Source of the DNA: Ignisphaera sp.
GTDB lineage: Archaea; Thermoproteota; Thermoprotei_A; Sulfolobales; Ignisphaeraceae
Length of the DNA stretch: 64,000 bases
NCBI GenBank assembly: GCA_038889075.1
Contig: JAWAHS010000001.1
Location: 151,667-215,666, forward strand
Direction of reading: 5' to 3'
In this document: piece after piece, positions 16,065 through 38,640 of the stretch
Numbering within the stretch: the stretch's first letter is position 1
How the letters are laid out: the number at the start of each line of letters is the position of its first letter
The notes under the pieces: model-generated
The model's database searches: none
What the model saw: the letters and a program-made list of their open reading frames with translations, nothing else
Told to the model about the DNA's origin: nothing
Translations under genes and position numbers: made by a program

Positions 16065-16067
16065 ATT

Positions 16068-16992: not shown

Positions 16993-17928
16993 TTACTGAA
17001 TTTGTATATCGATATTCTTGGTTACCTCAAGAGCCTCCCTTAGATATAGATGGTATGGCCCAAGCTTGCCACCATAATTACCCGCATCGATCTTTACCAC
17101 ACCAGGTACTGTTGAAGCAGCTCGTATTGCTACACCCATTGCAAATAATACATCCTCCTTCTTTAATCCATTTATAACAATCTCGTACACTGAATTAACC
17201 TCCTGTGGTAACTTGGAATCTTTAACAGCTCCCTTTAGTGTAGGACAGTAGAGATGGTTTGTTGTTGCTCTAAGCTTAGGATACTTTAGCGAGCCAACCT
17301 TGGAACCCGATCTCACTATACCACCTGGAAATGGTGTTATAACTCTCCTAGCGTATCTCCTTATGGCTTTAACAGCCTTCTCAGCAGCCATCAGACCAGC
17401 TTCACTACTCTTAGCTAGAATAAGAATGTTCCCCCCTGCAACACCTTTGATTACACCAAAGGAGTCCTCAATTATGAATTCACCTTCCATAACTGGAATC
17501 CTCCACACTTTCCTACCATGTAGTTCATCCTCTTTTTCAAAACCATCTCCAAATTTTGCAAGTGCGGTGCCCACACCCATTCTCCTTTTAGCCCATGGCA
17601 AACCATCGAATGCTGCTGTGGTAGGGCATGTGAGTATGGTTTGGCCAATCCGTGAAATTGTAATCATTTTAAGATTTACAGGATCTGTATGATAGAATTG
17701 AATTGCTATACCAACCCGCTTATCAGGTGTAAGTCTAGGCGATAAAAGGCATTCAATACCGGTTTCCCCAGGACTAGCAATGACAGAGGTACCGAAGCCT
17801 GTTGCAACCCGTCCAGCTATTAGTGCCCATTTACGGTTCTTAGCTGTTACAATAATTCTTGTAGCATACATTGGGAATGCTTCTGCAAAAGTATCCTCAA
17901 TTGAAGTACTTCCAATATCACGATTCAC
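16993..17928 (-). CDS. ftr: Formylmethanofuran:H4MPT formyltransferase
   Basis: IEDTFAEAF, RIGQTILTCPT, GVAGGN, PFPGGIVRSGSK, AGNYGGKLG. Confidence 0.97.
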   Translation of the reverse strand: MNRDIGSTSIEDTFAEAFPMYATRIIVTAKNRKWALIAGRVATGFGTSVIASPGETGIECLLSPRLTPDKRVGIAIQFYHTDPVNLKMITISRIGQTILTCPTTAAFDGLPWAKRRMGVGTALAKFGDGFEKEDELHGRKVWRIPVMEGEFIIEDSFGVIKGVAGGNILILAKSSEAGLMAAEKAVKAIRRYARRVITPFPGGIVRSGSKVGSLKYPKLRATTNHLYCPTLKGAVKDSKLPQEVNSVYEIVINGLKKEDVLFAMGVAIRAASTVPGVVKIDAGNYGGKLGPYHLYLREALEVTKNIDIQIQ

Positions 17929-18015
17929 ATTTCATCCCCTAAGAAATAGACCATTATTACTTATAAATTTTTAGCTCACAAGTACGTGGTGATGGATATT
18001 AAGAGGAGCTCATGA

Positions 18016-18774
18016 ATGAGGAGAATAGAGATCTATGGGCTTAGAATAGACAAGGAAATTTTACCTGGGGATAATATAGCTGAAACGTTAATTATGGCAG
18101 CAGAAAGCAATGGTATTAGGATATTGGATGGTGATATAATTGTCGTAAGTAGTAAGGTCATAGCTAAATCAGAGGGTCGAGTTGTTCCTCTGGATAGTGT
18201 GGAGCCGTCTGAGGAGGCTATGAGAATAGCTAATATAAGTAATAAGGATCCTAAACTAGTTGAATTGATATTGAGGGAATCAAAGGAAATTCTAAAAGTA
18301 GAGAGAAACAATATTATTGTGCTTACAAGACACGGTATTGTAGGAGCTAATGCAGGAATAGATCAGTCAAACACGGGAGGTACGGGAAAGGTTGTTTTGT
18401 TGCCTATAGATCCAGATGATTCAGCTAGGAAAATTCGAAGATATATTAATGATAAGCTAGGAGTTAATGTAGCAGTAATAGTATCGGACACCTACGGCAG
18501 ACCATTTAGAGAAGGACAAATCAATCTGGCAATAGGATTTGCAGGTATATGTCCGTACAGAGACTATAGGGGTCAAAGTGATAGGGATGGGTATATACTT
18601 AGAGTTAAGAATATTGCAATTGTGGATGAGATAGCAGCTGCCGCGGAGCTCGTTATGGGCCAATCAATAGAGAATACACCCTTTGCAATAGTTCGAGGAG
18701 TTGAATATGGTCGATGTGAGGAGGCCGGTTTTAAAGACATTGTAATGCCTAAAGAGCGGTGGCTGTTCAGATAA
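18016..18774 (+). CDS. cofE: Coenzyme F420-0:L-glutamate ligase
   Basis: SSKVIAKSEGR, ANAGIDQSN, LLPIDPD, SDTYGRPFREG, DEIAAAAELVMG. Confidence 0.93.
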   Translation: MRRIEIYGLRIDKEILPGDNIAETLIMAAESNGIRILDGDIIVVSSKVIAKSEGRVVPLDSVEPSEEAMRIANISNKDPKLVELILRESKEILKVERNNIIVLTRHGIVGANAGIDQSNTGGTGKVVLLPIDPDDSARKIRRYINDKLGVNVAVIVSDTYGRPFREGQINLAIGFAGICPYRDYRGQSDRDGYILRVKNIAIVDEIAAAAELVMGQSIENTPFAIVRGVEYGRCEEAGFKDIVMPKERWLFR

Positions 18775-18808
18775 ATAATCATAACATACCATATTGTGAA
18801 GCAGGGTA

Positions 18809-18833
18809 AATTTAAATACCATAGATTTAAATT
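18809..18833 (+). promoter_or_regulatory. TATA box within a 9-bp inverted repeat upstream of the FrhB-like gene
   Basis: AATTTAAAT-accatag-ATTTAAATT; includes TTTAAATA; AT-only, so it may be chance. Confidence 0.4.
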
Positions 18834-18861
18834 CTACATATGTTACAGAGATTTAATGTGA

Positions 18862-20013
18862 TTGGCTTTGAGCAATACAAAGGTAACTAATGTATCGATG
18901 AACATAGATGTAGGTCTTTGTTCATTTTGTGGGGCATGTATAGCTATCTGTCCGACGCATGTAGGTTCAAAGAACCTTGATTACATTCCAGAGAAATCTG
19001 CCGATAAACCTGTTGTTAAGGATTTCCAAAAATGTGAGAAATGTAGACACACACTATGTATGCAGATATGTCCACAGTTAAACATACCGAGTAGCTCATT
19101 TAATACAAATAGTTACGGTTACCAAGGAGCATACTATTCGAGGTCAAGGATGCAAGAAGTATTAAGTAGGGTACAGGATGGAGGGACGACCACAACACTT
19201 CTTCTTACAGCTCTAAGAGCAAAATTTGTGGACCATGTATTAATCCTTAAAAAGGATGATGAATGGTATCCTAAACCTATGATTACTCAGAGTGAAAATG
19301 ATGTTATAGAAGCAGGTGGTTCGAAATATGTTTTCTCTCCAATCCTTTCGGTTTTAGAAGAGGTTATAGATCGAATTGATATTGGTAAAGTAGCAGTTGT
19401 TGGTATTCCGTGTCAGTTGAGGGCTCTTGAAAACATTAGTAGACTTGGATTTAAACATAATAGTATCGCAGCTCTTAGAATCGGGTTATTCTGCATGCAC
19501 AGTTTTTCAAGAGATAGAATGGAATTGATACTAAAGGAGCTTGGCGTACAATTCAAAGATGTGGTAAAAATGAATATAAAGAAAGGAAAGCTATGGTTTA
19601 CACTAAGAGATGGAAGAATATTAGATTACCCATTAAGAAAAGCAGAGAAAGTACTCAGACCAGCATGTAGACAGTGTCCAGAGCTCTTTTCACCGTATGC
19701 CGATGTAAATGTGGGATCCATAGGAGCAGAGGAGAATTGGAATAGCCTATTGATTATGAATTCGAGAGGAAGAGAGCTTGTTGAAAAAGCGATTGACATG
19801 GGACTATTAGAGATTAAGCCTATGGACAATAGCGGTACTGAAACCATAGAAAAATATGTAAATAAAAAGGTTAGTGAAGCATTAAAGTATAGAGAGCTAT
19901 ATACTAAGGAGTTCCAAAATGTTCTACTCATAACTCCTACAAAGAGAGGTAGAAAATTAAATGAGATCTTAGAACACAAGTCTGGAAGAAGTATCTATCT
20001 ATCACCACTCTAG
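18862..20013 (+). CDS. F420-binding FrhB/FdhB/FpoF-family flavoprotein with N-terminal ferredoxin domain
   Basis: CSFCGACIAICP and CEKC...CMQICP; QDGGTTTTLL, GSKY, VGIPCQ, IGLFC, CRQC, DVNVGSIG. Confidence 0.9.
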   Translation: MALSNTKVTNVSMNIDVGLCSFCGACIAICPTHVGSKNLDYIPEKSADKPVVKDFQKCEKCRHTLCMQICPQLNIPSSSFNTNSYGYQGAYYSRSRMQEVLSRVQDGGTTTTLLLTALRAKFVDHVLILKKDDEWYPKPMITQSENDVIEAGGSKYVFSPILSVLEEVIDRIDIGKVAVVGIPCQLRALENISRLGFKHNSIAALRIGLFCMHSFSRDRMELILKELGVQFKDVVKMNIKKGKLWFTLRDGRILDYPLRKAEKVLRPACRQCPELFSPYADVNVGSIGAEENWNSLLIMNSRGRELVEKAIDMGLLEIKPMDNSGTETIEKYVNKKVSEALKYRELYTKEFQNVLLITPTKRGRKLNEILEHKSGRSIYLSPL

Positions 20014-21256: not shown

Positions 21257-21428
21257 ATTTCTCTTACCCTATCGTTCCTGCATGTTTAAAGATTGCTGTA
21301 GCGTTAATAAATACACCATATCAGTTGCGATTAAGGTTCAAACGTTTTAAAGCTTAAATACGTGTACTATTTAAAGCCCTGTATCTAATGCTATGAATGT
21401 CTGTGGACATCTAGAAGGTGATGCGCTA

Positions 21429-23540
21429 TTGGCTAATGGAGGTGCAGATCTATTTAGACCTAGGAGCGTAGCGGTTATTGGAGCGTCTAGGGAACCAGGC
21501 AAGGTTGGATATGCAGTACTAAAAAATATTATTAATAGTGGCTTTCAAGGAAAGATATATCCTATAAATCCTAAGGCAGAAGAAATACTGGGTATTAAGG
21601 CATACAAATCGGTGTTAGATGTTTCTGACGATATAGATCTGGGTGTAATTGTTGTACCTGCTTCCATAGCTCTAGATGTTGCTGAAGAATGTGGTAAGAA
21701 GGGTATTAAGCATCTTGTTGTAATATCAGCTGGCTTTAAGGAGGTAGGGGGTGAGGGTATTGAGAGAGAGAAAAAGCTTGTGGATATAGCTAGAAAATAT
21801 GGTATGAGGATGGTAGGGCCTAACTGCCTTGGTATTATAGATACGTATACACCCATAAATGCATCATTCTCAGCTACTATGCCAAAAAGAGGTAGTATAG
21901 CTTTTATATCACAGAGTGGTGCGCTCCTTACCGCAATTCTTGACTGGAGTATTAAGAAGGGTATAGGTTTTTCAAGAATTGTAAGCTTAGGCAATAAAGC
22001 TGATTTGAACGAAGCTGACTTTATCCAGGCTGTTGAAGAGGATGTTAATACAAAAGTTGTTTTGCTATATTTAGAATCTATTGAAAATGGTAGAAAGCTT
22101 ATAGAGGTAGCGGCTAGAGTTGGTAGGAAGAAGCCTATTGTTCTACTTAAGGGTGGTGTTACAGAGGCTGGTGCTAGAGCTGCTATGAGCCATACTGGAG
22201 CTATGACAAGTAGTACAACGATTCTCGAAGCTGGGCTTAAAAAGGCAGGTATCTTGATTGCTCGTAACCTTTCAGAGCTATTCGATTATGCTGTGGCGTT
22301 TAGTTATCAGCCAATACCTTTAAATAATAGAATTGCTGTAGTAACCAATGCCGGAGGACCGGGAGTTATAACATCGGATTTGATTGTGTCTAGGGGACTG
22401 AGGCTAGCATCATTCACTTCAGATACTATAAATAGTCTTAGGTCAAAGCTTCCGCCAGCAGCAGCTGTGTACAATCCTGTTGATGTATTAGGGGATGCTA
22501 GAGCTGATAGGTATAGCTATGCTATAGAGACCGTGTTGAACGATGATAACGTAGATGGTCTGATAGTTATACTCACGCCCCAAGCTATGACAGAGCCTGT
22601 AGAGACTGCAAAGGCTATGCTAAGACTGAATAAAAAGCATCCAAACAAGCCGATGGTGGGAGTATTTATAGGGGGTGATATGGTTGAGGAGGCATCTAGA
22701 ATTCTTATGGAGAATGGTGTTCCAGTATATGATTTGCCTGAAAGGGGTGTTATTGCAATTTATGGTCTGTGTAGATATAGAGAAAGTCTAGAGTATTTGG
22801 AGAGAATTTTAGAGAGGGCAATATTCTTTGATGTTGATAAAGCTACGGCACTATCTATTATAGATAGCGTTAAGAGTGAAAATCGTAAAACATTGCTAGA
22901 ATCGGAAGCTAAGGATTTAATAAAAAGCTATGGTATTCCAGTAGCACCTACACGTCTTGCGAAAAATGAAGATGAGGCTGTTGAAATAGCTAGTAGGATC
23001 GGCTATCCAGTGGTACTGAAGATAGCTTCGCCAGATATTATGCACAAGACAGATATAGGAGGTGTTGTAATGAATATAAATTCGGAGAAGGAAGTAAGAG
23101 AAGCCTTTAGAACAATAATTGACAGAGCATATAAATATGCTCCAAGGGCACTGGTCTACGGAGTAGCAGTTCAGAAAATGGTTCCCAGAGGTAGGGAGGT
23201 AATAATTGGTGTATCTAAGGATCCATCATTTGGTCATGTTATAATGTTTGGTCTTGGCGGTATATATACAAATGTATTCAGAGATGTTTCATTCAGACTC
23301 GCCCCCCTCTCAGCGTATGAGGCTAGAGAGATGATTAGTGAAACGAAAGCATATACGTTACTAAGGGGTTATAGAGGGGAGCCACCAGCAGATGTATCCT
23401 CAATAGTAAATATACTGTTAAGAGTTAGTCAATTGGTTACCGAGATACCCGATATAGTAGAAATGGATATTAACCCCCTCTTTGTATATAATGAAGGTAT
23501 GGGTAGTCTAGCTATAGATGTAAAGGTGGTACTTTCATAG
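21429..23540 (+). CDS. acd: ADP-forming acetate/acyl-CoA ligase, fused alpha-beta
   Basis: AVIGAS, GPNCLG, SQSGA, phospho-His in SHTGA, NPVDVLGDA, beta-domain HKTDIGGV, DINP. TTG at 21429 follows GGTGA; ORF track starts at 21393. Confidence 0.92.
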   Translation: MANGGADLFRPRSVAVIGASREPGKVGYAVLKNIINSGFQGKIYPINPKAEEILGIKAYKSVLDVSDDIDLGVIVVPASIALDVAEECGKKGIKHLVVISAGFKEVGGEGIEREKKLVDIARKYGMRMVGPNCLGIIDTYTPINASFSATMPKRGSIAFISQSGALLTAILDWSIKKGIGFSRIVSLGNKADLNEADFIQAVEEDVNTKVVLLYLESIENGRKLIEVAARVGRKKPIVLLKGGVTEAGARAAMSHTGAMTSSTTILEAGLKKAGILIARNLSELFDYAVAFSYQPIPLNNRIAVVTNAGGPGVITSDLIVSRGLRLASFTSDTINSLRSKLPPAAAVYNPVDVLGDARADRYSYAIETVLNDDNVDGLIVILTPQAMTEPVETAKAMLRLNKKHPNKPMVGVFIGGDMVEEASRILMENGVPVYDLPERGVIAIYGLCRYRESLEYLERILERAIFFDVDKATALSIIDSVKSENRKTLLESEAKDLIKSYGIPVAPTRLAKNEDEAVEIASRIGYPVVLKIASPDIMHKTDIGGVVMNINSEKEVREAFRTIIDRAYKYAPRALVYGVAVQKMVPRGREVIIGVSKDPSFGHVIMFGLGGIYTNVFRDVSFRLAPLSAYEAREMISETKAYTLLRGYRGEPPADVSSIVNILLRVSQLVTEIPDIVEMDINPLFVYNEGMGSLAIDVKVVLS

Positions 23541-23550
23541 GTGGTGACTG

Positions 23551-24612
23551 ATGAGGGCTATATATGTAGTTGGTGAAAGAGGTAAAACTATTCTAATATA
23601 TGGGCTACTAAGAAGATTCTCCCTAGAGGGGTTTAAGGTAGCATACTTTAAGCCCATATCAATGGCTAGAATGAGAGTTGCATCTGGTAAATATGTAGAT
23701 ACAGATGTTATTGCAATTAAGGATGCGCTAAACCTTGAGAATTCTATAGAGCATATTTCACCGATAGTAATATCTAGGAGCTATCTTGAATTAAGTGAGC
23801 GTGTAGATGAGGTTAAAAGCAGCATCTTGGAGGGTTTTAAGAAAGTTGTTGAGGGAAAAGATATAGTCATTATTGAAGGATACACACCAGCCGAGGCACT
23901 AACATCTATAAATTGTAACTTTGTAGAGCTTGCAAAGTTGTTTGGAGCAAAAATCGTACTGGTTATGGATTGTAGAAGTAGGATTGTGATCGATGAAATA
24001 ATAGATAGGGCAATCCTATATAAATGCTTCATAGAGAAATCAGGCGGCGAACTGTATGGTGTTATACTCAATACTGTACCAATAGTGTACACCGAACGTG
24101 TTAAGAGCTTGATCGTGCCGTATCTAGAAAAGCTTGGGATTAGAGTACTTGGCGTAATTGAAGAAAGACCTAGACTTACGGCATTAACCGTAAAAGATAT
24201 TGTGGAAGCGCTAAACGCTGAGGTATTGGAGGGTAAAGATAGGCTAAATTCTATGGTGGAGGATATTCTAATAGGTGCTATGAGCCCTGAGGCTGCTCTT
24301 AGATGGTTTAGAAGAGCTGTAAATGCAGCTATTGTAACAGGTGGTGATAGAACTGATTTAATTATGCAGGCACTTGAAACTCGACCAAGTGTTGTAATTT
24401 TAACCGGGAATCTATATCCCTCTATAGGTGTTTTGGTAAAGGCTAGAGAAACGGGTACACCAATATTACTAGTACCATATGATACATTTACAACAGTTGA
24501 GAGGCTTAAAGAGATGCAGGGAATAATCACCGCAGATTCATTAAAAGCTAGAGACAAGGATTTGATAACAATAATTGAAAAGGAGATTAAATGGAGAGAG
24601 CTACTGGCATAG
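23551..24612 (+). CDS. Phosphotransacetylase N-terminal-like protein (BioD-like P-loop + DRTGG domain), no PTA catalytic domain
   Basis: GKT, YFKP, IIEG, IGAM, TGGDRTD, ILTG; 10 bp downstream of acd. Confidence 0.85.
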   Translation: MRAIYVVGERGKTILIYGLLRRFSLEGFKVAYFKPISMARMRVASGKYVDTDVIAIKDALNLENSIEHISPIVISRSYLELSERVDEVKSSILEGFKKVVEGKDIVIIEGYTPAEALTSINCNFVELAKLFGAKIVLVMDCRSRIVIDEIIDRAILYKCFIEKSGGELYGVILNTVPIVYTERVKSLIVPYLEKLGIRVLGVIEERPRLTALTVKDIVEALNAEVLEGKDRLNSMVEDILIGAMSPEAALRWFRRAVNAAIVTGGDRTDLIMQALETRPSVVILTGNLYPSIGVLVKARETGTPILLVPYDTFTTVERLKEMQGIITADSLKARDKDLITIIEKEIKWRELLA

Positions 24613-24617: not shown

Positions 24618-25511
24618 CTACATCTTTTTAAATCTCAACACTATAATGGGATAGTGCTTAACTCTTCTGAGAGATAGCCATGTGACAGATCTAAAATGTT
24701 CCATACCCAACGCTTTAACCATTTCAATAATGTTCCTTCCAATACCATAACCACGGAATTTCTCGCCTATACGTGCTAGCCTAAGTAATGTATAGAGATC
24801 GAGTTGAATACCTATATATGCTGTCGGGGTTGGAAATTTCTCAAATAAATTTCTAAATACCTTTCCAAGAATGTAGGCAGCAACACCGAGATCTATAATA
24901 CCCTTTACCGTAGAGGGTCTTGTTGCTATTGCAAGAGATTTAATATTCTTTGGAACAAAACAGCTATCGGTATCAACAACGAGAATGTTTATGTTTGCGG
25001 ATAGCTTACCCTCTATGGATTGTTTCATCTCTCTAATTATCTTAGCAACATTTTTAACTGGTATAGATACGTAGTAGTACGGAAGATTTGTAGCATCTAT
25101 ACCAGATTCAGAAAGAGGTTTTAAAAAATGCCGCATTCCACCATAGTATAATGCTAATTTCTTGTGCTTTGCTAGAAGATCTATAGGGGTTTCACTTACA
25201 ATTCTAATTGTATTTATATCTGTAAACAGTTTTCTGAGAAGATATCCCCAGAGAATTCTTGAGGTAAAGAATGTCATCATAGACGTCATAGGATCAACAT
25301 TCACCGCATTCTCATCATAGATATTACCAAGAGCTATACTGAGGGCCTTGTCAGATATAACAATAATATCGTTATTTTTAATTGTATTACCATATACTTT
25401 TACAATCTCCTTAACAACATCTGTACCGGGCAGCCAATACTTACAAGGCTTTCTAATAACGCATAGCCTGTATCTGCTCCTTAGATTTAGATAATTCACG
25501 AATTGTTGCAC
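24618..25511 (-). CDS. Second, divergent CofE-like gamma-glutamyl ligase family protein
   Basis: YWLPG, DIIVISDKALS, SESGIDATNLP, VVDTD pattern matches the CofE fold. Confidence 0.7.
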   Translation of the reverse strand: MQQFVNYLNLRSRYRLCVIRKPCKYWLPGTDVVKEIVKVYGNTIKNNDIIVISDKALSIALGNIYDENAVNVDPMTSMMTFFTSRILWGYLLRKLFTDINTIRIVSETPIDLLAKHKKLALYYGGMRHFLKPLSESGIDATNLPYYYVSIPVKNVAKIIREMKQSIEGKLSANINILVVDTDSCFVPKNIKSLAIATRPSTVKGIIDLGVAAYILGKVFRNLFEKFPTPTAYIGIQLDLYTLLRLARIGEKFRGYGIGRNIIEMVKALGMEHFRSVTWLSLRRVKHYPIIVLRFKKM

Positions 25512-25532
25512 CTTCCACCTACTAAATGTAGT

Positions 25533-26273
25533 CTATAGAAATGCATTTATGGTAATTGATAGGTATAGACATAATAGCAACATCATCGAGGACGCTACGA
25601 CTATTATAGCATCTACGATCTTTATTGAAGCATCTATTGGATACTTAGGTATGCCATAAATGTAGGTAGCCTCTGTGATTTCTTTAGCATAATTTACAGA
25701 ATGTAAAATCATTGGCAACAAGGCCTTGTATAGGTATCTTGAACCATACTTTAGCTTTACTGTTGATAGCGCCTCTGAATACACTATCATGATGTAGGGA
25801 ATCTGTGAAAAAGCAATAGCTATAGAGGTTCCCAATTCACCAAGGCCTATTTTTTCGAGAAACCATCGAATCTCTTCTATTCTAGTCCACTGGAATATCG
25901 ATGCTATGGTCATAAACATAAGGGCTCCTTTCAATGAGGCTATGGTTGCGCTAGTTATATCAACAACCCAGAAGTTGAAGAACTTAGCCAATAGATTTAT
26001 AGCCAGACCTATTGCTATAAAGATTACAACAAACTGCAGTCCTCCTAAAATCTTTCTAAAACTGCCACTCGTATGAAGAATGATTAGAATTGCAACTAAT
26101 GCAGGTAACATGTAGAACAAATTGGATAGAGGTTTTAGTTTTAGAAACGAGCTGATGAGAAGGTATAGAAGTAGAATGGTAGGAATAGCTATCCTCGTGA
26201 TAACACTTAGCCCCGTAGATGAAGTGTAGATAAACGCATATGCTAGATTCTTCAACATTGATATGTTACCCAC
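25533..26273 (-). CDS. Probable ECF transporter transmembrane T component (divergent)
   Basis: About five N-terminal TM helices, then T..EE...L..IG...AIAFSQIP; canonical ARG coupling motifs not evident; follows an S component. Confidence 0.55.
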   Translation of the reverse strand: MGNISMLKNLAYAFIYTSSTGLSVITRIAIPTILLLYLLISSFLKLKPLSNLFYMLPALVAILIILHTSGSFRKILGGLQFVVIFIAIGLAINLLAKFFNFWVVDITSATIASLKGALMFMTIASIFQWTRIEEIRWFLEKIGLGELGTSIAIAFSQIPYIMIVYSEALSTVKLKYGSRYLYKALLPMILHSVNYAKEITEATYIYGIPKYPIDASIKIVDAIIVVASSMMLLLCLYLSITINAFL

Positions 26274-26389
26274 AGCAGCATATTATGGTACGACACTTGT
26301 TGTAAAATAATGTAGTTTTATAAGGTATTTAGCTTTACTATTTGACCTAGCACCAAACTATTTAATTTTAACTTAAAATAGAGTATTGA

Positions 26390-26992
26390 TTAGGTAACGA
26401 AACCCATTTTGCTGAGTATTCTCACTATAGGTATTGAGAATGTAGAGGTATATGCAGCTGAAATTGCATTGAATAGTACTATTAAGTGGAGAATAGGTAT
26501 AATGATACTATGCAATGCTACAGTATACGATGGTGCTCCCCAGAATAGTGTTGCTATTAATGGTGTTATAAGGATGTTTAATACTACCATAGCTATAGAC
26601 CTGCTTATTACTGCCACAAATATAAGTAGGAGAAACATCACTTTAGCAGATATGCGAGGATACGCCCTACGGAGATACCTGTATGTATATACCATCGGTA
26701 TATATGTTGAAGCCTCAGCTAAAACCTTCATAAGAGGGCTTAAAGGATTTGTAGCTCCCATTAGTAAGATTCCTAAATAGAATATGGGTAACCCTAGCGA
26801 AATTGAAAGTGGTAGATTTACAAATCCGGCTACTGCTAATGGTATTCCACAGAGATCAAATTTTAGGAACGGTGCTAATGGAAAGTCGATTTTCCCAAGA
26901 TGAATAGGTATAGCAAGGCTAGATAGTATAACCACTAGAGCTTTAGTTAAACTGAATGTTTTTGAAGATATTTTGGGGACTGGTGTAGTCAA
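26390..26992 (-). CDS. ECF transporter S component, RibU-like
   Basis: 200 aa hydrophobic; IDFPLAPFLKFDLCGIP resembles the RibU-family FLKxDxxDxP loop; VLNxLITP, I..FN. Confidence 0.8.
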   Translation of the reverse strand: MTTPVPKISSKTFSLTKALVVILSSLAIPIHLGKIDFPLAPFLKFDLCGIPLAVAGFVNLPLSISLGLPIFYLGILLMGATNPLSPLMKVLAEASTYIPMVYTYRYLRRAYPRISAKVMFLLLIFVAVISRSIAMVVLNILITPLIATLFWGAPSYTVALHSIIIPILHLIVLFNAISAAYTSTFSIPIVRILSKMGFVT

Positions 26993-26996
26993 TCTA

Positions 26997-27968
26997 TCAT
27001 ACCGCCCTTCTATAGCTCTTCACTATATTTAAAACTTTTTGTGCTAATATCACCTTAGCATCTATGCTATCCATAGCTATATTAGCTAGTGTCACATCTA
27101 CTCCTATTTCTCCTTTTATCCTATGTGCTAAGTGTTCATCGGAAGAGTCTATAACGATGTCTGATATGATATCAGAATACATCTCAGCAATACTATATGC
27201 CGTTGGTTCGTAGCCTAAATACTTCAATAGAACATGGGCTACCCCAGTAAAGGCTCTACCATTCCTAATTGGGGAAACTGCCACTATTGGTACCCCTGCT
27301 TCACGTTTCTTTCTAATACATTCTCTTATACCTCTAGTGCTAAGTATTGGATTTATGCTTAGGAATGGGTTGCTAGGTCCTATTACAATTATATCAGCGT
27401 TAGTTATAGCATTTAGAACTTCAGGTGGGGCCTTAGCTTCACCTATACCTCTGTATTCGATCTTGAAGACTTTTACCTTTTCAGGGTTCTGTTTAGCTGC
27501 ATATTTAACGAGATATTCCTGAATGTGAAGGTCACCTAGATCTGTATATATGTGTGTTTCTACATGTTCATCGCTCATAGGTAGAATTACCCCTTTAGCT
27601 TTAAGGACTTTAGAAATATACCTTGTAATCTCTGTTAATCTAAATCCTTGTCTAAGCATGTGGGTTCTAACTATGTGTATAGCTAGATCTCTATCTCCTA
27701 ATACAAACCAGTCTAAAACGTTAAATCTCCTAATCATACTGTATGTATTGAAAGTATCATTAATAATGCCCCAATACCTGCCAGTATCAAGTAATCCACA
27801 GGCAAGGTATGTAGCAGAATCGACGTCAGGTGCTATGTAAAGGTCTAAAAGCCATATATTGTCAGCAGTGTTAACCACTACAGTTATCGTTTCTGGATCA
27901 ATCAGTTCCCTTAATCCTTCAAAAAGCTTTAGACCACCCTGGCCACCAGTAAGCAGGACAATATTCAC
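26997..27968 (-). CDS. cofD: 2-phospho-L-lactate (LPPG:Fo) transferase
   Basis: LTGGQGG, VNTADN, APDVD, WFVLGDRD, PMSD, IGPSNPFLSI. Confidence 0.95.
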   Translation of the reverse strand: MNIVLLTGGQGGLKLFEGLRELIDPETITVVVNTADNIWLLDLYIAPDVDSATYLACGLLDTGRYWGIINDTFNTYSMIRRFNVLDWFVLGDRDLAIHIVRTHMLRQGFRLTEITRYISKVLKAKGVILPMSDEHVETHIYTDLGDLHIQEYLVKYAAKQNPEKVKVFKIEYRGIGEAKAPPEVLNAITNADIIVIGPSNPFLSINPILSTRGIRECIRKKREAGVPIVAVSPIRNGRAFTGVAHVLLKYLGYEPTAYSIAEMYSDIISDIVIDSSDEHLAHRIKGEIGVDVTLANIAMDSIDAKVILAQKVLNIVKSYRRAV

Positions 27969-27981
27969 GTATGCGTCACCA

Positions 27982-28656
27982 CTATTTGTGTCTAATTAGG
28001 CTAGTCCCATACAGGGACAGAATTCTACATAGTTCCTTTCCTCCGTATATGCTACATAGCTGTTTGGCTATTATGAGATCCTCAGCTGTATCTATATCTA
28101 TAGATGTACCTAGAGTGCTATATACATTTACCCTTATTGTTTTTTGGAGAGCTCTAGCTAGATGTTTTTGAAAGCTATTTTTACCGTGCATAAGCTCTAT
28201 CATGAGTGGATACCTTTGTAACATTATATTTGTACCGCCATCAATTGAAGGCGTGAGAACTATATCAAATCCATCTCTATAGAATCCTACGATGGTATTC
28301 ACATCTTCACTTGAGACAAACGGAGCATCTGCTACCCCAAAAATTACTGCATCGATTTTATATGGTATTGTTTCAAGGGCTTTGAGATAGGCCTCAATCT
28401 GTCCATTGCCACCATCATAAACTATATCTATGGTGAAATCTCGAACAGTTTCTCTTATACTTGGATCTGGGGTCACTAAGATTGTCTTATCAACATATCT
28501 CGAGCATGCATAGACGTGAATGACGTCTCTTAGCATAGCTTTTACAATCTCTATACGAATAGATTTTTCTATTTCTTTAAGCCTGGATTTCGCTCTATTA
28601 AGATCTTTAATCGGTACCAGGGCAACAATCATTATTAGCAACCATAGGATCTGCAT
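27982..28656 (-). CDS. cofC: 2-phospho-L-lactate/PEP guanylyltransferase
   Basis: VPIKDLNRAKSRL, AMLRDV, ADAP, DGGTN, SFQKH, DIDTAEDL. Confidence 0.93.
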   Translation of the reverse strand: MQILWLLIMIVALVPIKDLNRAKSRLKEIEKSIRIEIVKAMLRDVIHVYACSRYVDKTILVTPDPSIRETVRDFTIDIVYDGGNGQIEAYLKALETIPYKIDAVIFGVADAPFVSSEDVNTIVGFYRDGFDIVLTPSIDGGTNIMLQRYPLMIELMHGKNSFQKHLARALQKTIRVNVYSTLGTSIDIDTAEDLIIAKQLCSIYGGKELCRILSLYGTSLIRHK

Positions 28657-28673: not shown

Positions 28674-29324
28674 CTATGGTATTATAAGCGTGTAAGGTGA
28701 GCAGCAGGAGGTTTTTTCTAATAAGCAATAGAGAGAATCTACATAGTGCGCATTTACAATAGCTGTAGGTATGCGATGTCTTCTGATTAATATAGGCGTA
28801 TATTCATCAATAACATTTTGATTTAATGGAACGCTATCCGCTTTAATGGTTCTAGCTATACTGCCATTGACAATTATACCACTTACAAGTTTTGTTAATA
28901 TGGCTATATCAGCCTTAAGTAGATGTGCTATGAATACGGTGATAGCATCGCTTGTTACAGACCACGAGTGGGGTAGCTCATCATATTTTTTAATGATATT
29001 GAAGGGCATTATTAGGGGAAGGCGATTTCTAGACCATACATCGTACACCCTCTCTAGGGTATCCGCACTCTCTATATAGCTACTTCTTGAGCTAATGAAT
29101 GCACCATATACTTCCATGGACTTTATCGCCATCCAGTGTGCTGTCGAATCGTCGAAGTTTAGTCTCCTTTGAAGATCGCGAATCACATCTGCAAATATAC
29201 TACCCCCTGGTACTATAGCTATTCTTATATCATTGTTCTGAAGCTTTGAGAGGGTATTGAGTAGCGTATCGAGAGTATCGGTACTCCATAGAAGATTGCC
29301 GCTAATTTTAACTACGGTTTTCAT
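28674..29324 (-). CDS. mfnE: Amino-acid-kinase family, [5-(aminomethyl)furan-3-yl]methyl phosphate kinase
   Basis: VVKISG, VPGGSIFADVIR, AHWMAI, LPHSWSVTSD; next to mfnF. Confidence 0.85.
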   Translation of the reverse strand: MKTVVKISGNLLWSTDTLDTLLNTLSKLQNNDIRIAIVPGGSIFADVIRDLQRRLNFDDSTAHWMAIKSMEVYGAFISSRSSYIESADTLERVYDVWSRNRLPLIMPFNIIKKYDELPHSWSVTSDAITVFIAHLLKADIAILTKLVSGIIVNGSIARTIKADSVPLNQNVIDEYTPILIRRHRIPTAIVNAHYVDSLYCLLEKTSCCSPYTLIIP

Positions 29325-29326: not shown

Positions 29327-30400
29327 TTACTTAGACACCCTTTGGCGCATCATCATAGTAGCAGCATATGCTGGAAATACAGCTGATATCTGTGGTTCTA
29401 TAAGATTATCTATATCTACAATTACTTTAAAGCCAGCTCTTTTTGCTGCTTCACTTGCTAGAAACTTTCCTACACCGGCTACAACTACCTTAAAAATCGA
29501 TGGATCTATATTAAGGGAAGCTATATAGCTTCTAATTTGCATTAAAGCACCAGACACCATATGTATCTGCATCTCGTAGATGTATCTAGCCATCTCCCTA
29601 ATTTCAAACTCGTTCAATATCATCATATCGCCACACACTACTCGAGCCAACCTCTCCATAGCCTCCTCTAAAGAGGTACCTCTGCCATCAGCCGTCTCTG
29701 TTGTATACTCGCTACTCGATATGTTTCTTAGTATGAGGTGGACATCGCCTACCAATGCGAATCTCTCATTGCATATTCTAGCGTAGAGTCCCTTTATGGG
29801 AACCCTATCAACAATGCCTACAACATTACTTCTTAGAATGCCGGTATATACAAGCTCGCCAACGATAAGTTTCTCGGTATCTGTAAATCCTCTTACACAA
29901 GCTTTTCCGCTGATTATAGGAATTAGAGTAGTCGTTGTACTACCTATATCAACAAATATGCTATTTTCAATACCCCATCTATACGAGTATCTCTCCAAAA
30001 ACCATGCAGAAGCAGCCCAGTTTGCTCCTGCAACTTTCAGATAGTTCTCAATAGCCTCATCACTAGATACTAGCTTCATATCACTAGAGACAAACTTTAT
30101 ATCGATCGCATCGCTAAATGCATCCATAGATGATCTGACTATGTGTTCAACACCTTCTCTTTTAACTCTATAGACATCACTTAGTTCAGCTGTCATGCAT
30201 ATAGCTATATAGTACTGTTCACTATCCGTAATAATACTTCTTCTAATCTCTCTAAGCTTTTCCTCTAAACCTTTTCTACCACGGATCCATATAGGGAAAT
30301 ATTCTCGCAGAACTGATAGCACCTTTACCTCATTATCGTATGCGTCTATTTTCACAGCCTTTATATTAGCACCTCCTATATCGAGACCAACAATAATCAA
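29327..30400 (-). CDS. mfnF: Hydantoinase/oxoprolinase-like methanofuran biosynthesis protein
   Basis: GLDIGGANIK, MTAELSD, ANW, DIGSTTT, ELVYTGILR, TADGRG, RLARVVCGD. Confidence 0.88.
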   Translation of the reverse strand: MIIVGLDIGGANIKAVKIDAYDNEVKVLSVLREYFPIWIRGRKGLEEKLREIRRSIITDSEQYYIAICMTAELSDVYRVKREGVEHIVRSSMDAFSDAIDIKFVSSDMKLVSSDEAIENYLKVAGANWAASAWFLERYSYRWGIENSIFVDIGSTTTTLIPIISGKACVRGFTDTEKLIVGELVYTGILRSNVVGIVDRVPIKGLYARICNERFALVGDVHLILRNISSSEYTTETADGRGTSLEEAMERLARVVCGDMMILNEFEIREMARYIYEMQIHMVSGALMQIRSYIASLNIDPSIFKVVVAGVGKFLASEAAKRAGFKVIVDIDNLIEPQISAVFPAYAATMMMRQRVSK

Positions 30401-31493: not shown

Positions 31494-32210
31494 TTATTTT
31501 GCAGGTTTGAATATATACTCATAGAGAGTCGCTCCTATTATACCCCCTATTATAGGTCCTATTAGATATATCCATACCTTGGATAGAGGCAGTAGATCAC
31601 CAGCAATAGCTGCAGCTATTGCCGGTCCAAGAGATCTTGCAAAATTCATGCTTGCACCTGTTAACGGTCCTCCAATCCATATATCGCAGGCTACTATCAT
31701 CCCTATTGAAAACCCTGCCCAGCCTGTCGGTGCCCGTTTATCTACGGCTACACCCATTATTACAAATAGTAGCCATAATGTGAGGATGATCTCTATAACT
31801 ACGGCTGCACCATCTCCTACTCCAGTACCTGGAAGTGTAGAACCAAAGCGAACAGCCTTACCTGCAACTGGGAAGAATCCGTAGAGGCAGAGACCTGCTA
31901 TAATGGAACCTATAATCTGAGCAGCTATATAGGGTGCTACAAGTTTAGCAGGAAGTCTTCCAATAGCAGCAAGGGCGACTGTTACAGAAGGGTTTATATG
32001 TGTACCCGAGATGTGACCCAGGGTATAGATCATTATCATTACAATAAAGCCGAATGTAGCACCTATACCAAATAGTGCAGCAGGGCCGCCACCAAGTATC
32101 GAGATTAGGGTTATAACTGATGCAGGTCCGAATAGTGTTAGAGCCCATGTGCCAAATATCTCTGCTATAAACATCTGTAGCAATGTAGGCTGGGTCTTTT
32201 GACTAGCCAA
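31494..32210 (-). CDS. MIP/aquaporin-family channel with variant NPS and NFA motifs
   Basis: AEIFGT, GHISGTHINPSVT, E..LT, TGASMNFARSLGP, WIYLIGP. Confidence 0.92.
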   Translation of the reverse strand: MASQKTQPTLLQMFIAEIFGTWALTLFGPASVITLISILGGGPAALFGIGATFGFIVMIMIYTLGHISGTHINPSVTVALAAIGRLPAKLVAPYIAAQIIGSIIAGLCLYGFFPVAGKAVRFGSTLPGTGVGDGAAVVIEIILTLWLLFVIMGVAVDKRAPTGWAGFSIGMIVACDIWIGGPLTGASMNFARSLGPAIAAAIAGDLLPLSKVWIYLIGPIIGGIIGATLYEYIFKPAK

Positions 32211-32348: not shown

Positions 32349-33902
32349 CTAGGCAGCCTCTACTCCAGCCGTTAATGGCACTGTTTTAGCTATACCTATT
32401 CTATACCAGCACCACTTACATCTACCACTTAGGAATGTCTGGCTAACGCCGCATGCCTTACATATTGGTGGTGGCGCTATTGGTTTTTCTGGATGTAGCG
32501 CTACAATATATGTATTGATTGTAGCAGTAACAGGTTCGCTTGTTAAGAGGCATGGGAAGTCCGCTAATCTCATAAGCGATGAAAATCTCACTGTTATTGC
32601 ACAACCTGGATAGGTGTATCTCTGCGGAGCCATCAGGACAGCATTTCTCTTTATGGGTGATAGATCTATCTTAAGACCCTTTAGTACATAGCCATCTCTT
32701 CCAAATGGTGAAGGTCTGATTACGTCTGCGCCTCTCATGATGAGGTCTATGAAGTCAGCATTGTGTAGTTCTGCAGCAGGGCTTCTAGTTGGGTATTTCA
32801 GTACAAAGTTGTGGAATCTCTTTACAAGTAGGTCAGCAACAGTTTCACCTGTGAAGCCATCCAATTCAAGTATAAATGTTGTTGCTCCAGCAAGGGTTCT
32901 ACCTGCGGCTGTTAAGGCATCATATTCGCTCTTTATAAGACCCTCCTTAACACCTTTAGTCAGAGTTACATCTAGGACATCTGTAACAGCCTCCATAATA
33001 GCCATAGTCATATCATCTTTAGCCATGTTGTACATGCTCTGAGATATATGGTGACCCACATCGCCAACACCATATGCTGGTACGACAGTGAGATTAGCGG
33101 GGTGTACACCTGCATTAAGTGCCGCCTTTATATATGGTAGCATCCTATCCTTAAATTTGCTCATATATGTTGCAGGATCAAAGCTCCTATGGCCAACAGC
33201 CTTCATGACATCTATCTGCATTTTTACAGGTTCTAGCCACATCTTCTTCAGAGCTTCGATCTCTTCCTTCACAGCCTCATCAAGGGATTTGCCAGCCTCA
33301 ACTGCTGCTACAAATGTTGCTCCAAAGCCATAGCTTGTAGCCATACCCCAGCTCTTAGCAGCAAGTATTATCTCCTTGTGCTCCTTTGGAATATCAAGCT
33401 TCTCAAGAATGGCTGCATGTATTCCCGGCATTCCTCCAACAGCATAGGCAAAGTCAACCACACATGTAGGTCCATAGAACCCTGCATACTTCCTAACGAG
33501 TTCTCTACCTATGAATCCTTTATGCTCCTCTAAAGCTTTTGTAAACTTTTCAACCGATTCTTTAAATTTTGGATCAAGCTCATACAGAATCTCAAGAACT
33601 ACAGGTGTCTGGTAGTGCTCAACGTAGGGATCGTCCTCAGGAACTATGGTTTTATCGACAGCAATTTCATTTAGAATATCGTAGTGTGCAACAACACTAG
33701 CTACAAACAGATCTATAACCTCCTTCTTCATAGGGCCAACAGCAGCCATTTTCTTTGTAGCTTCAACATACGGGGCTGCATCAGGTATGACGAATTTGCC
33801 TCCGCGCCTCTCTCTAATGACAGAAATATCAGCTTTTTGAGCAGCAATAGCATCTTCAACAATTTTGGTTACTACTTCAGGTGGAAGACTTGAAGTACCC
33901 AA
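32349..33902 (-). CDS. DUF2193-family protein with C-terminal Cys cluster (putative Fe-S)
   Basis: AAQKADI, PEDDPYVEHYQTP, GFYGPTCVVDF, KSWGM, GDVGHHISQS, RFSSLMRLADFPCLLTSEP, CKAC-x10-CKWC. Confidence 0.85.
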   Translation of the reverse strand: MGTSSLPPEVVTKIVEDAIAAQKADISVIRERRGGKFVIPDAAPYVEATKKMAAVGPMKKEVIDLFVASVVAHYDILNEIAVDKTIVPEDDPYVEHYQTPVVLEILYELDPKFKESVEKFTKALEEHKGFIGRELVRKYAGFYGPTCVVDFAYAVGGMPGIHAAILEKLDIPKEHKEIILAAKSWGMATSYGFGATFVAAVEAGKSLDEAVKEEIEALKKMWLEPVKMQIDVMKAVGHRSFDPATYMSKFKDRMLPYIKAALNAGVHPANLTVVPAYGVGDVGHHISQSMYNMAKDDMTMAIMEAVTDVLDVTLTKGVKEGLIKSEYDALTAAGRTLAGATTFILELDGFTGETVADLLVKRFHNFVLKYPTRSPAAELHNADFIDLIMRGADVIRPSPFGRDGYVLKGLKIDLSPIKRNAVLMAPQRYTYPGCAITVRFSSLMRLADFPCLLTSEPVTATINTYIVALHPEKPIAPPPICKACGVSQTFLSGRCKWCWYRIGIAKTVPLTAGVEAA

Positions 33903-36225: not shown

Positions 36226-38640
36226 ATGGTCACAATAGAAATGTTTATAGCTGTAGTACTCCATACCACTAACAAGGCTATACTATACTTTAGCGGTTTT
36301 ATGGGGGTAGTATTGGGTTGTAGGGATGTTAGGGCTGTAAAGATAAGGATAGTAGGTACCGTACAAGGGGTTGGTTTTAGACCCTTTATCTATAGGCTTG
36401 CTACCTCTCTTAATTTAAAAGGGTATGTTGTTAATCTTGGTGGTAGCGAAGTTGAGATACATGTTGAGGGGGAAGAAAATCAGATTGAGATCTTTATATC
36501 AAGGCTCACTACTGAAAAGCCTCCACCTGCTAAGATAGTAAGCATTGAAATTAGAGAGGTTGAGCCTCAGTATTTTGCATCCTTTAAAATTCTAAGGAGT
36601 AGTAAGAGTCTATCTGCAAGAAGCTCTATACCACCAGACGTCGCTATATGTCGGGACTGTATCAATGAGATCTATACAGAGGGTTCGCGATTCTATAGAT
36701 ATCCATGGAATAGTTGTGCATGGTGTGGTCCTAGGTTTTCTATGATGTATGATATACCATATGATAGAGAAAATACAGCCATGTTTAAGTTTAAACTATG
36801 TGAAGAGTGTTCAAAAGAGTATAGCGATCCGAGCAATATTAGAAGATTTCATGCACAAGGTATAAGCTGTTCTAGATGTGGTCCAAAAACATTTGTATAT
36901 CGAAGTAGTGGTGAGAGGATCTATGTTGAAGATCCTGTAAGTTTCATAGCGCAGAAGATTCTTGAGGGCTGTATAGTTGCCATTAAGGGTATAGGTGGCT
37001 ATCACATAGCGTGTCTGGCTACGAGAGATGATGTTGTCCTAGAGTTGAGATCTAGGAAGAGGAGACCTTCACAACCATTTGCTCTAATGGCTAAGGATTT
37101 CGACATAGTGAATAGAATCGCTATACCTCCTCCAGGTGCAAGAGAATTGCTAGAGTCTCCACAAAGACCTATAGTAGTTATGCCTAAGCGTCCTGGATCT
37201 CCACTGTCAGAATATGTGGCACCTGCACTTTCTACAATTGGTGTTATGCTTCCATATACGGGTTTTCAGGTTATGCTACTTAATACTACTCCAGACGGTT
37301 TTCTTATAATGACTAGTGGGAATGTTCATGGAAAGCCTATGTGTACGGATCTCGAATGTATTTTTAGCGAACTTGTAGATGTTGTGGATTATGTTGTTGA
37401 ACATGAGAGGCAGATCGTTCATAGAGTTGATGATAGTGTTATAAGGTTTACAGATGGTGTACCGGTGTTTCTTAGGAGGGCACGTGGATATGCTCCAGAA
37501 TGGATAGAAACACAAGTGGAGCTTTTAGAAGGCGTAGCTGTTGGTGCAGAGCTTCAAACAGCTGGTGCTGTAGGTTTTGAAAATAAGGTCGTTCTGACAC
37601 AGTTTATAGGTGATATCGATGAACCTGCACAGCTGGAGGATCTTGAGAAAGAGCTTAGGTGGTTTATAAAGGTGTACAGACTTAATCCCATGTTTATAGC
37701 ACTGGATAAGCATCCCCTTTATCATAACAGATCAGCTGCGAAGAAGTTGGCTAGAGAATTTGGTGCAGAACTTATCGAGGTTCAGCACCATCATGCACAT
37801 ATAGCATCCGTTATGGGTGAAGTAGGGGTTTCGAAGGATGAAGAAGTTGTTGGTATAGCAATTGATGGAACAGGTTATGGAGACGATGGAGGTATATGGG
37901 GTGGTGAGGTGATAACCGCTAGCTATAGGGATTATATGAGAACTGGCAGTCTAGAGCCCTTTATACTTCCGGGTGGAGATTCCTCTGCTATATATCCAGT
38001 TAAGTCTCTTATCAGCATAATGGCTTCAGCTGGTTACAGTGAAGATGAGGTTCTAGATACTCTTGATAAAATGGATTTGTTTAAAGGCCTTCCACATGGT
38101 CGTAAGGAGGGTGAGGTAATATATTACCTATCTAAGAGTGGAAAGGGTATGGTTACAACGAGTATCGGTAGAGTACTAGATGCTTTTTCAGCTCTATTAA
38201 ATATATGTACGTTCAGAAGCTATGAGGGTGAACCACCAATAAAGCTTGAGGCTGTAGCTGATATAGGTAAGGATCTAGGCTATACACCAAGGTTAAGAAG
38301 CTTTGGTGATAGAATAATTGTAAGCGTTTCAGATATGCTTAGATGGGTTCTCGACAATATTGGTAAAGAGAGAAAGGAGGATATAGCTACCACAATACAG
38401 AGAGGTTTTGGCAGAGCATTAGGTGAAGCGGCACTGGTATCGTTAAAGGGAAGGAGAAATGCAAAGCAATACATTGTTATTGGAGGTGGTGCAGCTGCAA
38501 ATACTCATATAGTTAGAGGTGTGAAGGAGGTGTTAAAGGAATATGGTGTAGATGTTATCTTGCCCAGAAGATTGCCTCCTAGTGACGGTGGAATAGCATT
38601 TGGCCAGATAATCATAGCATCCAGTAAAGCCGGGAAGTGA
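36226..38640 (+). CDS. hypF: Hydrogenase maturation carbamoyltransferase
   Basis: Acylphosphatase VQGVGFRP, two Zn fingers (CRDC/CAWC, CEEC/CSRC), RRARG, QHHHAH, DGTGYG, SDGG; true start probably near 36301. Confidence 0.96.
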   Translation: MVTIEMFIAVVLHTTNKAILYFSGFMGVVLGCRDVRAVKIRIVGTVQGVGFRPFIYRLATSLNLKGYVVNLGGSEVEIHVEGEENQIEIFISRLTTEKPPPAKIVSIEIREVEPQYFASFKILRSSKSLSARSSIPPDVAICRDCINEIYTEGSRFYRYPWNSCAWCGPRFSMMYDIPYDRENTAMFKFKLCEECSKEYSDPSNIRRFHAQGISCSRCGPKTFVYRSSGERIYVEDPVSFIAQKILEGCIVAIKGIGGYHIACLATRDDVVLELRSRKRRPSQPFALMAKDFDIVNRIAIPPPGARELLESPQRPIVVMPKRPGSPLSEYVAPALSTIGVMLPYTGFQVMLLNTTPDGFLIMTSGNVHGKPMCTDLECIFSELVDVVDYVVEHERQIVHRVDDSVIRFTDGVPVFLRRARGYAPEWIETQVELLEGVAVGAELQTAGAVGFENKVVLTQFIGDIDEPAQLEDLEKELRWFIKVYRLNPMFIALDKHPLYHNRSAAKKLAREFGAELIEVQHHHAHIASVMGEVGVSKDEEVVGIAIDGTGYGDDGGIWGGEVITASYRDYMRTGSLEPFILPGGDSSAIYPVKSLISIMASAGYSEDEVLDTLDKMDLFKGLPHGRKEGEVIYYLSKSGKGMVTTSIGRVLDAFSALLNICTFRSYEGEPPIKLEAVADIGKDLGYTPRLRSFGDRIIVSVSDMLRWVLDNIGKERKEDIATTIQRGFGRALGEAALVSLKGRRNAKQYIVIGGGAAANTHIVRGVKEVLKEYGVDVILPRRLPPSDGGIAFGQIIIASSKAGK

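Follow-up and report, generated by a model that had tools for sequence, protein, structure and literature searches.

How does an archaeon that carries F420-dependent enzymes obtain the deazaflavin head group of this cofactor, if the genes for making it are not found in its genome? The question arises at a locus of Ignisphaera sp. (GenBank assembly GCA_038889075.1, contig JAWAHS010000001.1, positions 151,667 to 215,666), a stretch of 64,000 nucleotides (nt) that we call the window. There, genes for a RibU-related S component and a putative T component of a transporter of the energy-coupling factor (ECF) type lie between cofD and a paralogue of cofE, in a minus-strand run that begins with mfnF, mfnE and cofC. 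The listing of open reading frames (ORFs) and family scans confirm this order as first described, and the gap of 4 nt between the cofD stop codon and the TTG start of the S gene can be read directly from the sequence. A preliminary description had supposed that the cell imports Fo (7,8-didemethyl-8-hydroxy-5-deazariboflavin) or fragments of F420. We consider it fairly probable that the S–T pair is an importer of Fo feeding CofD, made of a RibU-derived S component and a divergent T component and driven by the ATPase of a paralogous operon.

The genome (1.95 Mb in 25 contigs, 99.58% complete) defines the need. Fo is a ribityl-deazaflavin analogue of riboflavin and the substrate of CofD. The Fo synthase genes cofG and cofH, noted earlier as missing from the window, have no match at E ≤ 1e-3 anywhere in this genome, and in the two congeners with the same locus (G058 and G093) no match exceeds the cut-off; in 14 reference genomes used as controls, the CofG and CofH searches gave matches over cut-off in 4 and 3, respectively. 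Lumazine synthase, RibB and GTP cyclohydrolase III were not found genome-wide, in a search that left aside the pyrimidine deaminase and reductase steps, and a CTP-dependent riboflavin kinase is present. CofC and CofD score above their NCBIfam equivalog cut-offs; canonical CofE and the F420-dependent enzymes Mtd and Mer are also over theirs. The genome thus has the profile of an Fo-salvaging F420 user: F420 enzymes and CofC, CofD and CofE are present, while CofG, CofH and three riboflavin-pathway markers are not found. Since it has neither Fo synthase nor a riboflavin-pathway supply of the pyrimidine substrate of that enzyme, the deazaflavin head group must come from the surroundings; with the riboflavin markers missing too, the cell depends on outside supply for this head group and for riboflavin alike. 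It retains the enzymes that lead from riboflavin to flavin mononucleotide (FMN) and from Fo to F420.

As a single sequence, the S protein has no match in Pfam (E ≤ 10), NCBIfam or the sequences of the Protein Data Bank (PDB). An exhaustive HMMER search of 1.84 billion representatives gave 31 relatives at E ≤ 1e-3. Searched against the PDB, a profile built from 27 of these relatives matches, along its full length, RibU of Staphylococcus aureus (3p5n, E 4.8e-24) and of Thermotoga maritima (5kbw, 5.9e-17); individually, 12 of the 27 match PF12822 (ECF_trnsprt) and one matches PF07155. The AlphaFold2 model of S (pLDDT 93.6, pTM 0.87) leads to the same proteins: ranks 1 to 5 of a Foldseek search are T. 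maritima and S. aureus RibU, with TM scores by target of 0.81–0.82, E values of 2.6e-5 to 2.4e-4 and an identity of about 22% in the Foldseek alignment. S is a RibU homologue with a predicted six-helix S-component fold. Its early designation as RibU-like therefore stands, at the level of profile and fold only and not at that of the single sequence.

The motifs of S show what was kept and what was changed. Its FPLAPFLKFD segment aligns with loop 1 of RibU, the motif FP..P.LK.D being common to both. Also kept in its family are an FN pair in the last helix and an Asn, invariant across the archaeal S family, that aligns with N131 of S. aureus RibU, which we take to be a riboflavin contact. Unlike RibU, the archaeal family has its own invariant K89 and R131 and does not conserve the position of S. 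aureus RibU K167, and the window S matches neither ECF-ribofla_trS nor ECF_trnsprt of Pfam. The cof-linked S proteins of four Ignisphaera species form a clade (clade A) that has departed from the rest of the family and from bacterial RibU: IP[FY]P has become IDFP, and DPIGP has become NPLSP, so that the DPxG motif is turned into NPLS. RibU binds riboflavin; the window S sits among F420 genes and has Fo as its proposed ligand. Homology by profile and fold, together with the invariant Asn, would also suit a second importer of riboflavin or FMN, the two RibU isoforms being for instance of high and low affinity and the position beside cofD being irrelevant to the substrate. We hold this alternative, the main rival of Fo import, to be unlikely, while giving it real weight, and the replacement of family-conserved motifs in clade A speaks against it.

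The T component is much less certain than S. Its single sequence matches nothing in Pfam (E ≤ 10, CbiQ included), NCBIfam or the PDB sequences, and its family profile finds no match in the PDB. Aligned by hhalign with the CbiQ-positive EcfT of G029, an uncultured Desulfurococcales archaeon of another family (genus g24), it reaches a probability of 2%, in a colinear alignment. On the other side, an ESM Atlas model (pLDDT 0.74), superposed on an EcfT cluster over 239 residues, gives a TM score of 0.72, and of its 30 feature neighbours in the Atlas 29 carry the CbiQ set. A gene of the same type comes last in S-EcfAA'-T operons, both on contig C2 of the same genome and at the cof locus of another Ignisphaera species (L050, L184 and L186). 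From context and the Atlas fold match, and from no hidden Markov model (HMM), the protein would be a very divergent EcfT; to that extent the earlier label of ECF T holds, without a match to the CbiQ model.

Where the pair came from can be read from its paralogues. RibU-like S genes number exactly two in the genome, as do T-like genes, and the second set forms a complete operon on C2, with a fused EcfAA' ATPase gene between S and T (Table 1). Cof-linked and C2 copies are 43% identical in S and 36% in T. In the fourth Ignisphaera species (L050; metagenome contigs L184 and L186) the cof locus reads MfnF-MfnE-CofC-CofD-S-EcfAA'(486 aa)-T-CofElike, and the in-locus EcfAA' of this sister species is 48% identical to that of C2. 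An S-EcfAA'-T set at the same place means that the cof-linked genes are those of a full ECF system, and, with the similar identities of the paralogues, that the whole operon was copied into the cof operon. The ATPase gene disappeared afterwards on the branch leading to the window genome, G058 and G093, three of the four species. Gene order is the same in the C2 operon and in the L050-type cof-linked copy; the cof-linked copy differs by its place between cofD and the CofE paralogue, by the loss of the ATPase in three of four species, by its altered motifs and by a longer stem branch. In the tree, clade A (4 species, support 100 in the SH-aLRT likelihood-ratio test) clusters with clade B, to which the C2 S belongs, and with two further sequences of Desulfurococcales, and its stem measures about 1.0 vs 0.45 for clade B. 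Ordinary members of the S family are followed by ATPase and T genes (loci L187–L195).

It could be asked if the pair still works. In the 116-nt spacer that now separates S and T, tblastn detects no ATPase remnant. An independent metagenome contig (X8 record 22, window 25851–26902) runs across the S–T junction, a 46,989-bp contig from another run covers this region in full, and the junction is identical across independent assemblies. Among the four species, the ratio of non-synonymous to synonymous substitution rates (dN/dS) is 0.13–0.20 for S, 0.09–0.24 for T and 0.11–0.21 for CofD, values that are rough because dS is near saturation; S and T appear to be under purifying selection, like CofD. 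That the pair is a decaying remnant, made non-working by the loss of its ATPase, is accordingly a reading to which we give very little credence. It would explain why neither an ATPase gene nor a remnant lies between S and T and why T is so divergent, and in L186, which is of the ATPase-bearing type, the ATPase is split into two ORFs (3670–5140), where a sequencing error or early decay is possible. Against a remnant stand the intact frames in the three ATPase-less species, the CofD-like selection, the reproducible junction and a compatible ATPase on C2, of the type that was lost.

A working S–T pair without ATPases of its own has a described counterpart. Listeria monocytogenes has, beside a RibU importer, a second S and T for a flavin-type cofactor without ATPase genes (EetB/FmnA), and according to the abstract of the paper concerned the pair works with shared ECF ATPases (PMC9973259). 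The two are likened by description, not by sequence, and they differ: as presented there, EetB/FmnA exports flavin adenine dinucleotide (FAD) for extracytosolic flavinylation, whereas the window pair is archaeal, stands in an F420 context and is proposed to import. The shared architecture, an extra S and T alongside a complete ECF importer, would admit a module that moves flavin or deazaflavin out of the Ignisphaera cell in the same manner. Such export is the least probable of the readings we weighed, and hardly to be expected: with synthesis genes found for neither Fo nor riboflavin the cell would have no surplus to send out, the run shows no gene for a flavinylated or extracytoplasmic partner, and in the sister species the locus still has an ATPase of its own.

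What is transported, in which direction and with whose ATPase, we infer as follows. S and T would be the membrane half of an ECF-type importer of the RibU family, copied from the cell's own S-EcfAA'-T flavin operon. The cof-linked S would bind Fo outside the cell, dock on its cognate T and topple under ATP hydrolysis. Fo would then be handed to CofD; CofD and CofC would convert it to F420-0, to which CofE would add glutamates, and the older C2 paralogue would keep riboflavin uptake. Because this riboflavin auxotroph has a second RibU paralogue besides S, the case rests on such a division of labour and not on the likeness of S to RibU. The same logic, early pathway lost and late enzymes kept in one operon with an importer of the intermediate, is known from ECF and ATP-binding cassette (ABC) salvage importers: in cobinamide or thiamine-precursor salvage, importers are encoded inside late-pathway operons.

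The gene context would serve as well for other F420-related cargo, namely F420-0, F420 itself or a dual flavin and deazaflavin range without preference, and a dual range would also fit the single-copy S genes of riboflavin auxotrophs in other genera (see below). We see this as a minor possibility, improbable for two reasons. CofC and CofD are retained in the same operon, CofD under purifying selection; the imported compound would thus still need the phospholactyl step, which points to Fo. In addition, ECF S components generally bind small vitamins that are uncharged or singly charged.

The distribution of the locus bears on the choice between Fo and riboflavin. Among 101 sampled genomes of the order, four have cofD: the window genome (G000), G058, G093 and G029. 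Carriers of clade A are exactly the first three, and the synteny MfnF-MfnE-CofC-CofD-S-T-CofElike is kept in both G058 and G093. Within the genus, cofD is present in only 3 of 11 sampled genomes, the window genome included, and the C1 pathway of the window (see below) is thus a sub-lineage trait. For a second riboflavin importer one can cite the three riboflavin-pathway markers that were not found and the riboflavin kinase that is present. Such an importer would duplicate the complete RibU-type operon on C2, and nothing in it accounts for the restriction of clade A to the three sampled genomes of the genus that have cofD.

G029 is the cleanest case. RibB, two genes of lumazine-synthase fold, GTP cyclohydrolase III and cofE are present in this genome, and neither cofG nor cofH is over cut-off. 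Its single RibU-like gene is the first of an S-EcfA-EcfA'-EcfT operon beside cofC-cofD, and only 24 nt separate the end of the final gene from cofD. A genome with three riboflavin markers whose only RibU-like ECF system abuts cofC-cofD argues against riboflavin as the cargo. Used as a single query, the G029 S protein finds only itself, and in the tree it sits on a long branch of uncertain place.

We then looked at the linkage across the phylum, in a sample of 401 genomes. The counts are 174 for cofD, 78 for cofG (E ≤ 1e-40) and 212 for the RibU-like profile. Among the 97 genomes with cofD and without cofG, 80 were examined, those with the place of cofD among the matches listed; 16 were left out and the window genome is the 97th. 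As controls served 20 of the 77 genomes with both genes: all 16 outside family f14 with a listed place, and 4 of f14. A RibU-like gene lies within 7 kb on either side of cofD in 9 of the 80 cofG-negative genomes and in none of the 20 controls. In three genomes of g76 it is convergent, 12–37 nt after cofD-cofC; in three of g78 it is divergent from an FbiB-C-terminal-like gene and cofD; in one of g81 it lies about 730 nt upstream; and in two of g97 it is about 4.9 kb away. By chance about 0.9 genomes and 0.4 genera would be expected, against 9 and 4 observed (P about 7e-4 at the genus level; 0.055 under deliberately generous assumptions). The linkage of RibU-like S genes to cofD is more than chance.

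The genomes concerned resemble the window genome in their F420 genes. Neither cofG nor cofH was found at E ≤ 1e-5 in five g78 genomes, nor cofH in five genomes of g76, g81 and g97; cofE is over cut-off in 8 of 8 tested. The cofD-near S proteins of the four genera, 8 of 8, share a single deep clade (SH-aLRT 94) with four further proteins of unplaced context. The tree forces at least two origins of the cofD linkage. Conservation of the adjacency, on which the preliminary description had staked its proposal, is thus borne out in four Ignisphaera species and recurs in g24, g76, g78, g81 and g97. For a riboflavin importer indifferent to its neighbours, proximity to cofD in g1, g76, g78, g81 and g97 (phylum sample) and g24 (order sample), at about ten times the chance rate, would not be expected.

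Several observations weigh against an Fo importer. No ECF ATPase gene lies within the minus-strand cof run of the window, and that the fused EcfAA' of the C2 operon would serve as ATPase is assumed. EcfT proteins have two coupling helices whose Ala-Arg-Gly motifs dock the ATPases; under the 'ARGS' and 'ESRCFG' of G029 EcfT, T reads 'KYGS' and 'YIYG', with the Gly kept and the Arg not, and none of nine members of the T family matches CbiQ (PF02361) at E ≤ 1. In one metatranscriptome (RNA-library) run (X20) we saw short contigs on cofD, cofC, mfnE and mfnF and on one bin of S, and none on T or the CofE paralogue; these contigs may be DNA carry-over and cannot show transcription, strand or level, and the gaps prove nothing. 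In G029, cofC is split into two ORFs (L036 8746–9566), through a possible sequencing error or early decay.

The phylum survey adds to this list. The cofG count at E ≤ 1e-40 would miss very divergent Fo synthases. Taken alone, the contrast between cofG-negative and cofG-positive genomes is not significant (Fisher p 0.12), and related genomes are not independent. In g76, g78, g81 and g97 the cofD-near S is the sole RibU-like gene (one match each; three in G189), and lumazine synthase was found in none of five tested genomes of these genera; sole copies in such genomes speak for a riboflavin importer, and in these genera the transport of riboflavin, alone or in addition, is no less likely. A RibU-like gene is missing altogether from two g78 genomes that have cofD but neither cofG nor cofH (G140 and G438), and none lies near cofD in 71 of the 80 cofG-negative genomes. 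If Fo salvage is general, other routes must therefore exist; candidates are a different transporter, a RibU-like gene lying elsewhere in the genome and the diffusion of Fo, which is uncharged. Specificity for Fo may also be dual with riboflavin in some lineages. Altogether, the proposal of Fo or F420-fragment import gains from the absence of cofG and cofH and from the conserved adjacency, and has to be qualified by the missing ATPase, the two RibU paralogues and the sole-copy S genes of riboflavin auxotrophs.

Table 1. Features of the locus. Positions refer to the window, except in the last three rows, which refer to contig C2 of the same genome; scores are given with the cut-off of the model.
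Feature	Position	Strand	Remarks
MfnF-like/TIGR03123 protein	29327–30400	-	NF040623 235.4 bits (cut-off 520); TIGR03123 308 bits (cut-off 244.1)
MfnE-like kinase, amino-acid-kinase fold	28674–29324	-	NF040622 124.6 bits (cut-off 300)
CofC, 2-phospho-L-lactate guanylyltransferase	27982–28656	-	TIGR03552 111.9 bits (cut-off 105)
CofD, 2-phospho-L-lactate transferase	26997–27968	-	TIGR01819 282 bits (cut-off 257.45)
RibU-family ECF S component, cof-linked paralogue (clade A), proposed Fo-binding subunit, 200 aa	26390–26992	-	
A+T-rich spacer between S and T genes, 116 nt	26274–26389	-	fused EcfAA' gene at this place in sister species
Putative divergent EcfT-like membrane protein, 246 aa	25533–26273	-	alternative ATG start five codons downstream gives 241 aa
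Divergent F420_ligase-domain protein (CofE paralogue), 297 aa, last gene of run	24618–25511	-	PF01996 40.5 bits (cut-off 25)
Canonical CofE	18016–18774	+	TIGR01916 258.8 bits (cut-off 180.65)
Mtd, F420-dependent methylene-H4MPT dehydrogenase	16068–16934	-	NF002162 388.9 bits (cut-off 297)
Mer, F420-dependent methylene-H4MPT reductase	41580–42575	+	TIGR03555 443.8 bits (cut-off 348.7)
Paralogous S	296958–297581 (C2)		
Paralogous fused EcfAA', 474 aa	295562–296986 (C2)		
Paralogous T	294835–295569 (C2)		

Some labels of the run need adjustment. The gene first called CofE-like carries an F420_ligase domain and has an Atlas match of 0.97 to archaeal F420_ligase clusters, and it is syntenic in the four Ignisphaera species; it is not cofE, its TIGR01916 score of 18.1 bits being far under the cut-off that the canonical gene exceeds. 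Likewise, MfnE and MfnF do not reach the equivalog cut-offs of NF040622 and NF040623, and the MfnF-like protein passes that of the broader TIGR03123. Rfam at gathering thresholds gives no RNA family in the window, and hence no FMN-type riboswitch.

Directly beyond the run, a 715-residue acyl-CoA synthetase (ADP-forming) and a 353-residue DRTGG/AAA_26 protein (window 21393–24612) adjoin it in 4 of 4 Ignisphaera species. The same pair lies 2–4 kb from cofD in four cofG-positive genomes of family f42 (loci L138, L140, L141 and L144), and it is conceivable that it is linked to F420 synthesis, for example as a source of 2-phospholactate. A DUF2193 protein of 517 residues (32349–33902, E 2e-201) stands beside an aquaporin-family gene (31494–32210). 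Elsewhere, the window carries a tetrahydromethanopterin (H4MPT)-type C1 island (9859–20013, 40597–42575 and 59219–63833) with formylmethanofuran dehydrogenase (Fwd) subunits, Ftr, Mch, Mtd and Mer, along with a lone MtrH, an MptN-like ligase and carbon monoxide dehydrogenase/acetyl-CoA synthase (CODH/ACS). An Mrp/Mbh-type membrane hydrogenase is found at 42892–52319, and HypF, HypC and HypE at 36226–40274.

Outside the window, the gene directly downstream of the paralogous operon (C2:294053–294577) has an N-terminus that presumably belongs to a protein like the formaldehyde-activating enzyme (Fae). A third ECF system of the genome (C4:15330–18719) consists of a 294-residue membrane protein, a fused EcfAA' of 568 residues and a canonical CbiQ-like T, which matches EcfT of G029 with a phmmer E of 1.8e-25.

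The survey gave further observations. By family, cofD and cofG occur in 16/17 and 1/17 genomes of f22, in 16/25 and 0/25 of f24, and in 4/4 and 0/4 of f26; in the ammonia-oxidiser-like family f14, both are present in 56 of 56 genomes and a RibU-like gene in none of the 56. A profile of the deep clade, run on 67 chosen genomes, is strong (E ≤ 1e-30) in families with cofD and without cofG and weak in the cofD-less f20, not every match being classified. In each of two genomes of family f37, cofD-positive and cofG-negative, two deep-clade RibU-like genes stand as a divergent tandem pair (G186:C1:1392479–1394437 and G207:C8:443056–444728), where flavin and deazaflavin may again have been divided between two copies. 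In G427, cofD and the divergent RibU-like gene are separated by a gene (L053 8986–9615) whose product is similar to the nitroreductase domain at the C-terminus of FbiB (TIGR03553, E 1.7e-42, below cut-off), a hint that an archaeon may use the dehydro-F420-0 route; its positional counterpart in G272 (L054 4049–4684) has an N-terminus that reads much like it.

In open-access papers and preprints we found no described importer of Fo or F420 and no F420 salvage pathway, in line with the earlier remark that no ECF importer for Fo is known to have been described. The words 'uptake', 'salvage' and 'scaveng' do not occur in the text of a 2021 review of F420 (PMC8498797). The sole transporter that it mentions is a putative exporter next to genes for 3-phosphoglycerate-type F420 (3PG-F420); in passages of the review, diffusive loss of Fo from the cell is mentioned, and Bathyarchaeota and Verstraetearchaeota are called predicted F420 producers. 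In yeast, Fo and riboflavin appear to compete for uptake, more Fo being converted without riboflavin; passages of this engineering study (PMC8859854) reason that the two compounds enter by common routes. The novelty here would lie in the ligand proposed for an ECF S component and in its pathway context, for which we found no earlier description. The hypothesis lends itself to direct testing, since riboflavin and Fo both fluoresce; binding by RibU has classically been followed by fluorescence quenching, as passages of PMC9354243 relate.

F420 serves in methanogenesis-type C1 chemistry, in antibiotic synthesis and in prodrug activation, and its biosynthesis is treated as all-or-none in genome annotation. 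That about half of the sampled cofD genomes have cofD without cofG makes the locus more than a curiosity. We tentatively suggest, at somewhat short of even confidence, that F420 is a vitamin-dependent cofactor in much of Thermoproteota. About half of the sampled genomes with cofD, those without Fo synthase, would use Fo from methanogens, ammonia oxidisers or bacteria, and RibU-type S components would on two or more occasions have become importers of Fo, dedicated or dual, by whole-operon duplication in Ignisphaera and in the deep clade found near cofD in four other families. If this broader reading is true, it would give the first transporter for Fo, or for any deazaflavin, and the first defined F420 salvage pathway. 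Should Fo be imported, the paralogue pair would offer an experiment already made by nature, in which the ligand of an ECF S component changes from flavin to 5-deazaflavin, and a deazaflavin transporter would be usable for F420-dependent biocatalysis in Fo-fed hosts. Many archaea now scored as F420 producers would then be dependants, tied to others by producer–consumer cross-feeding in hot springs and sediments.

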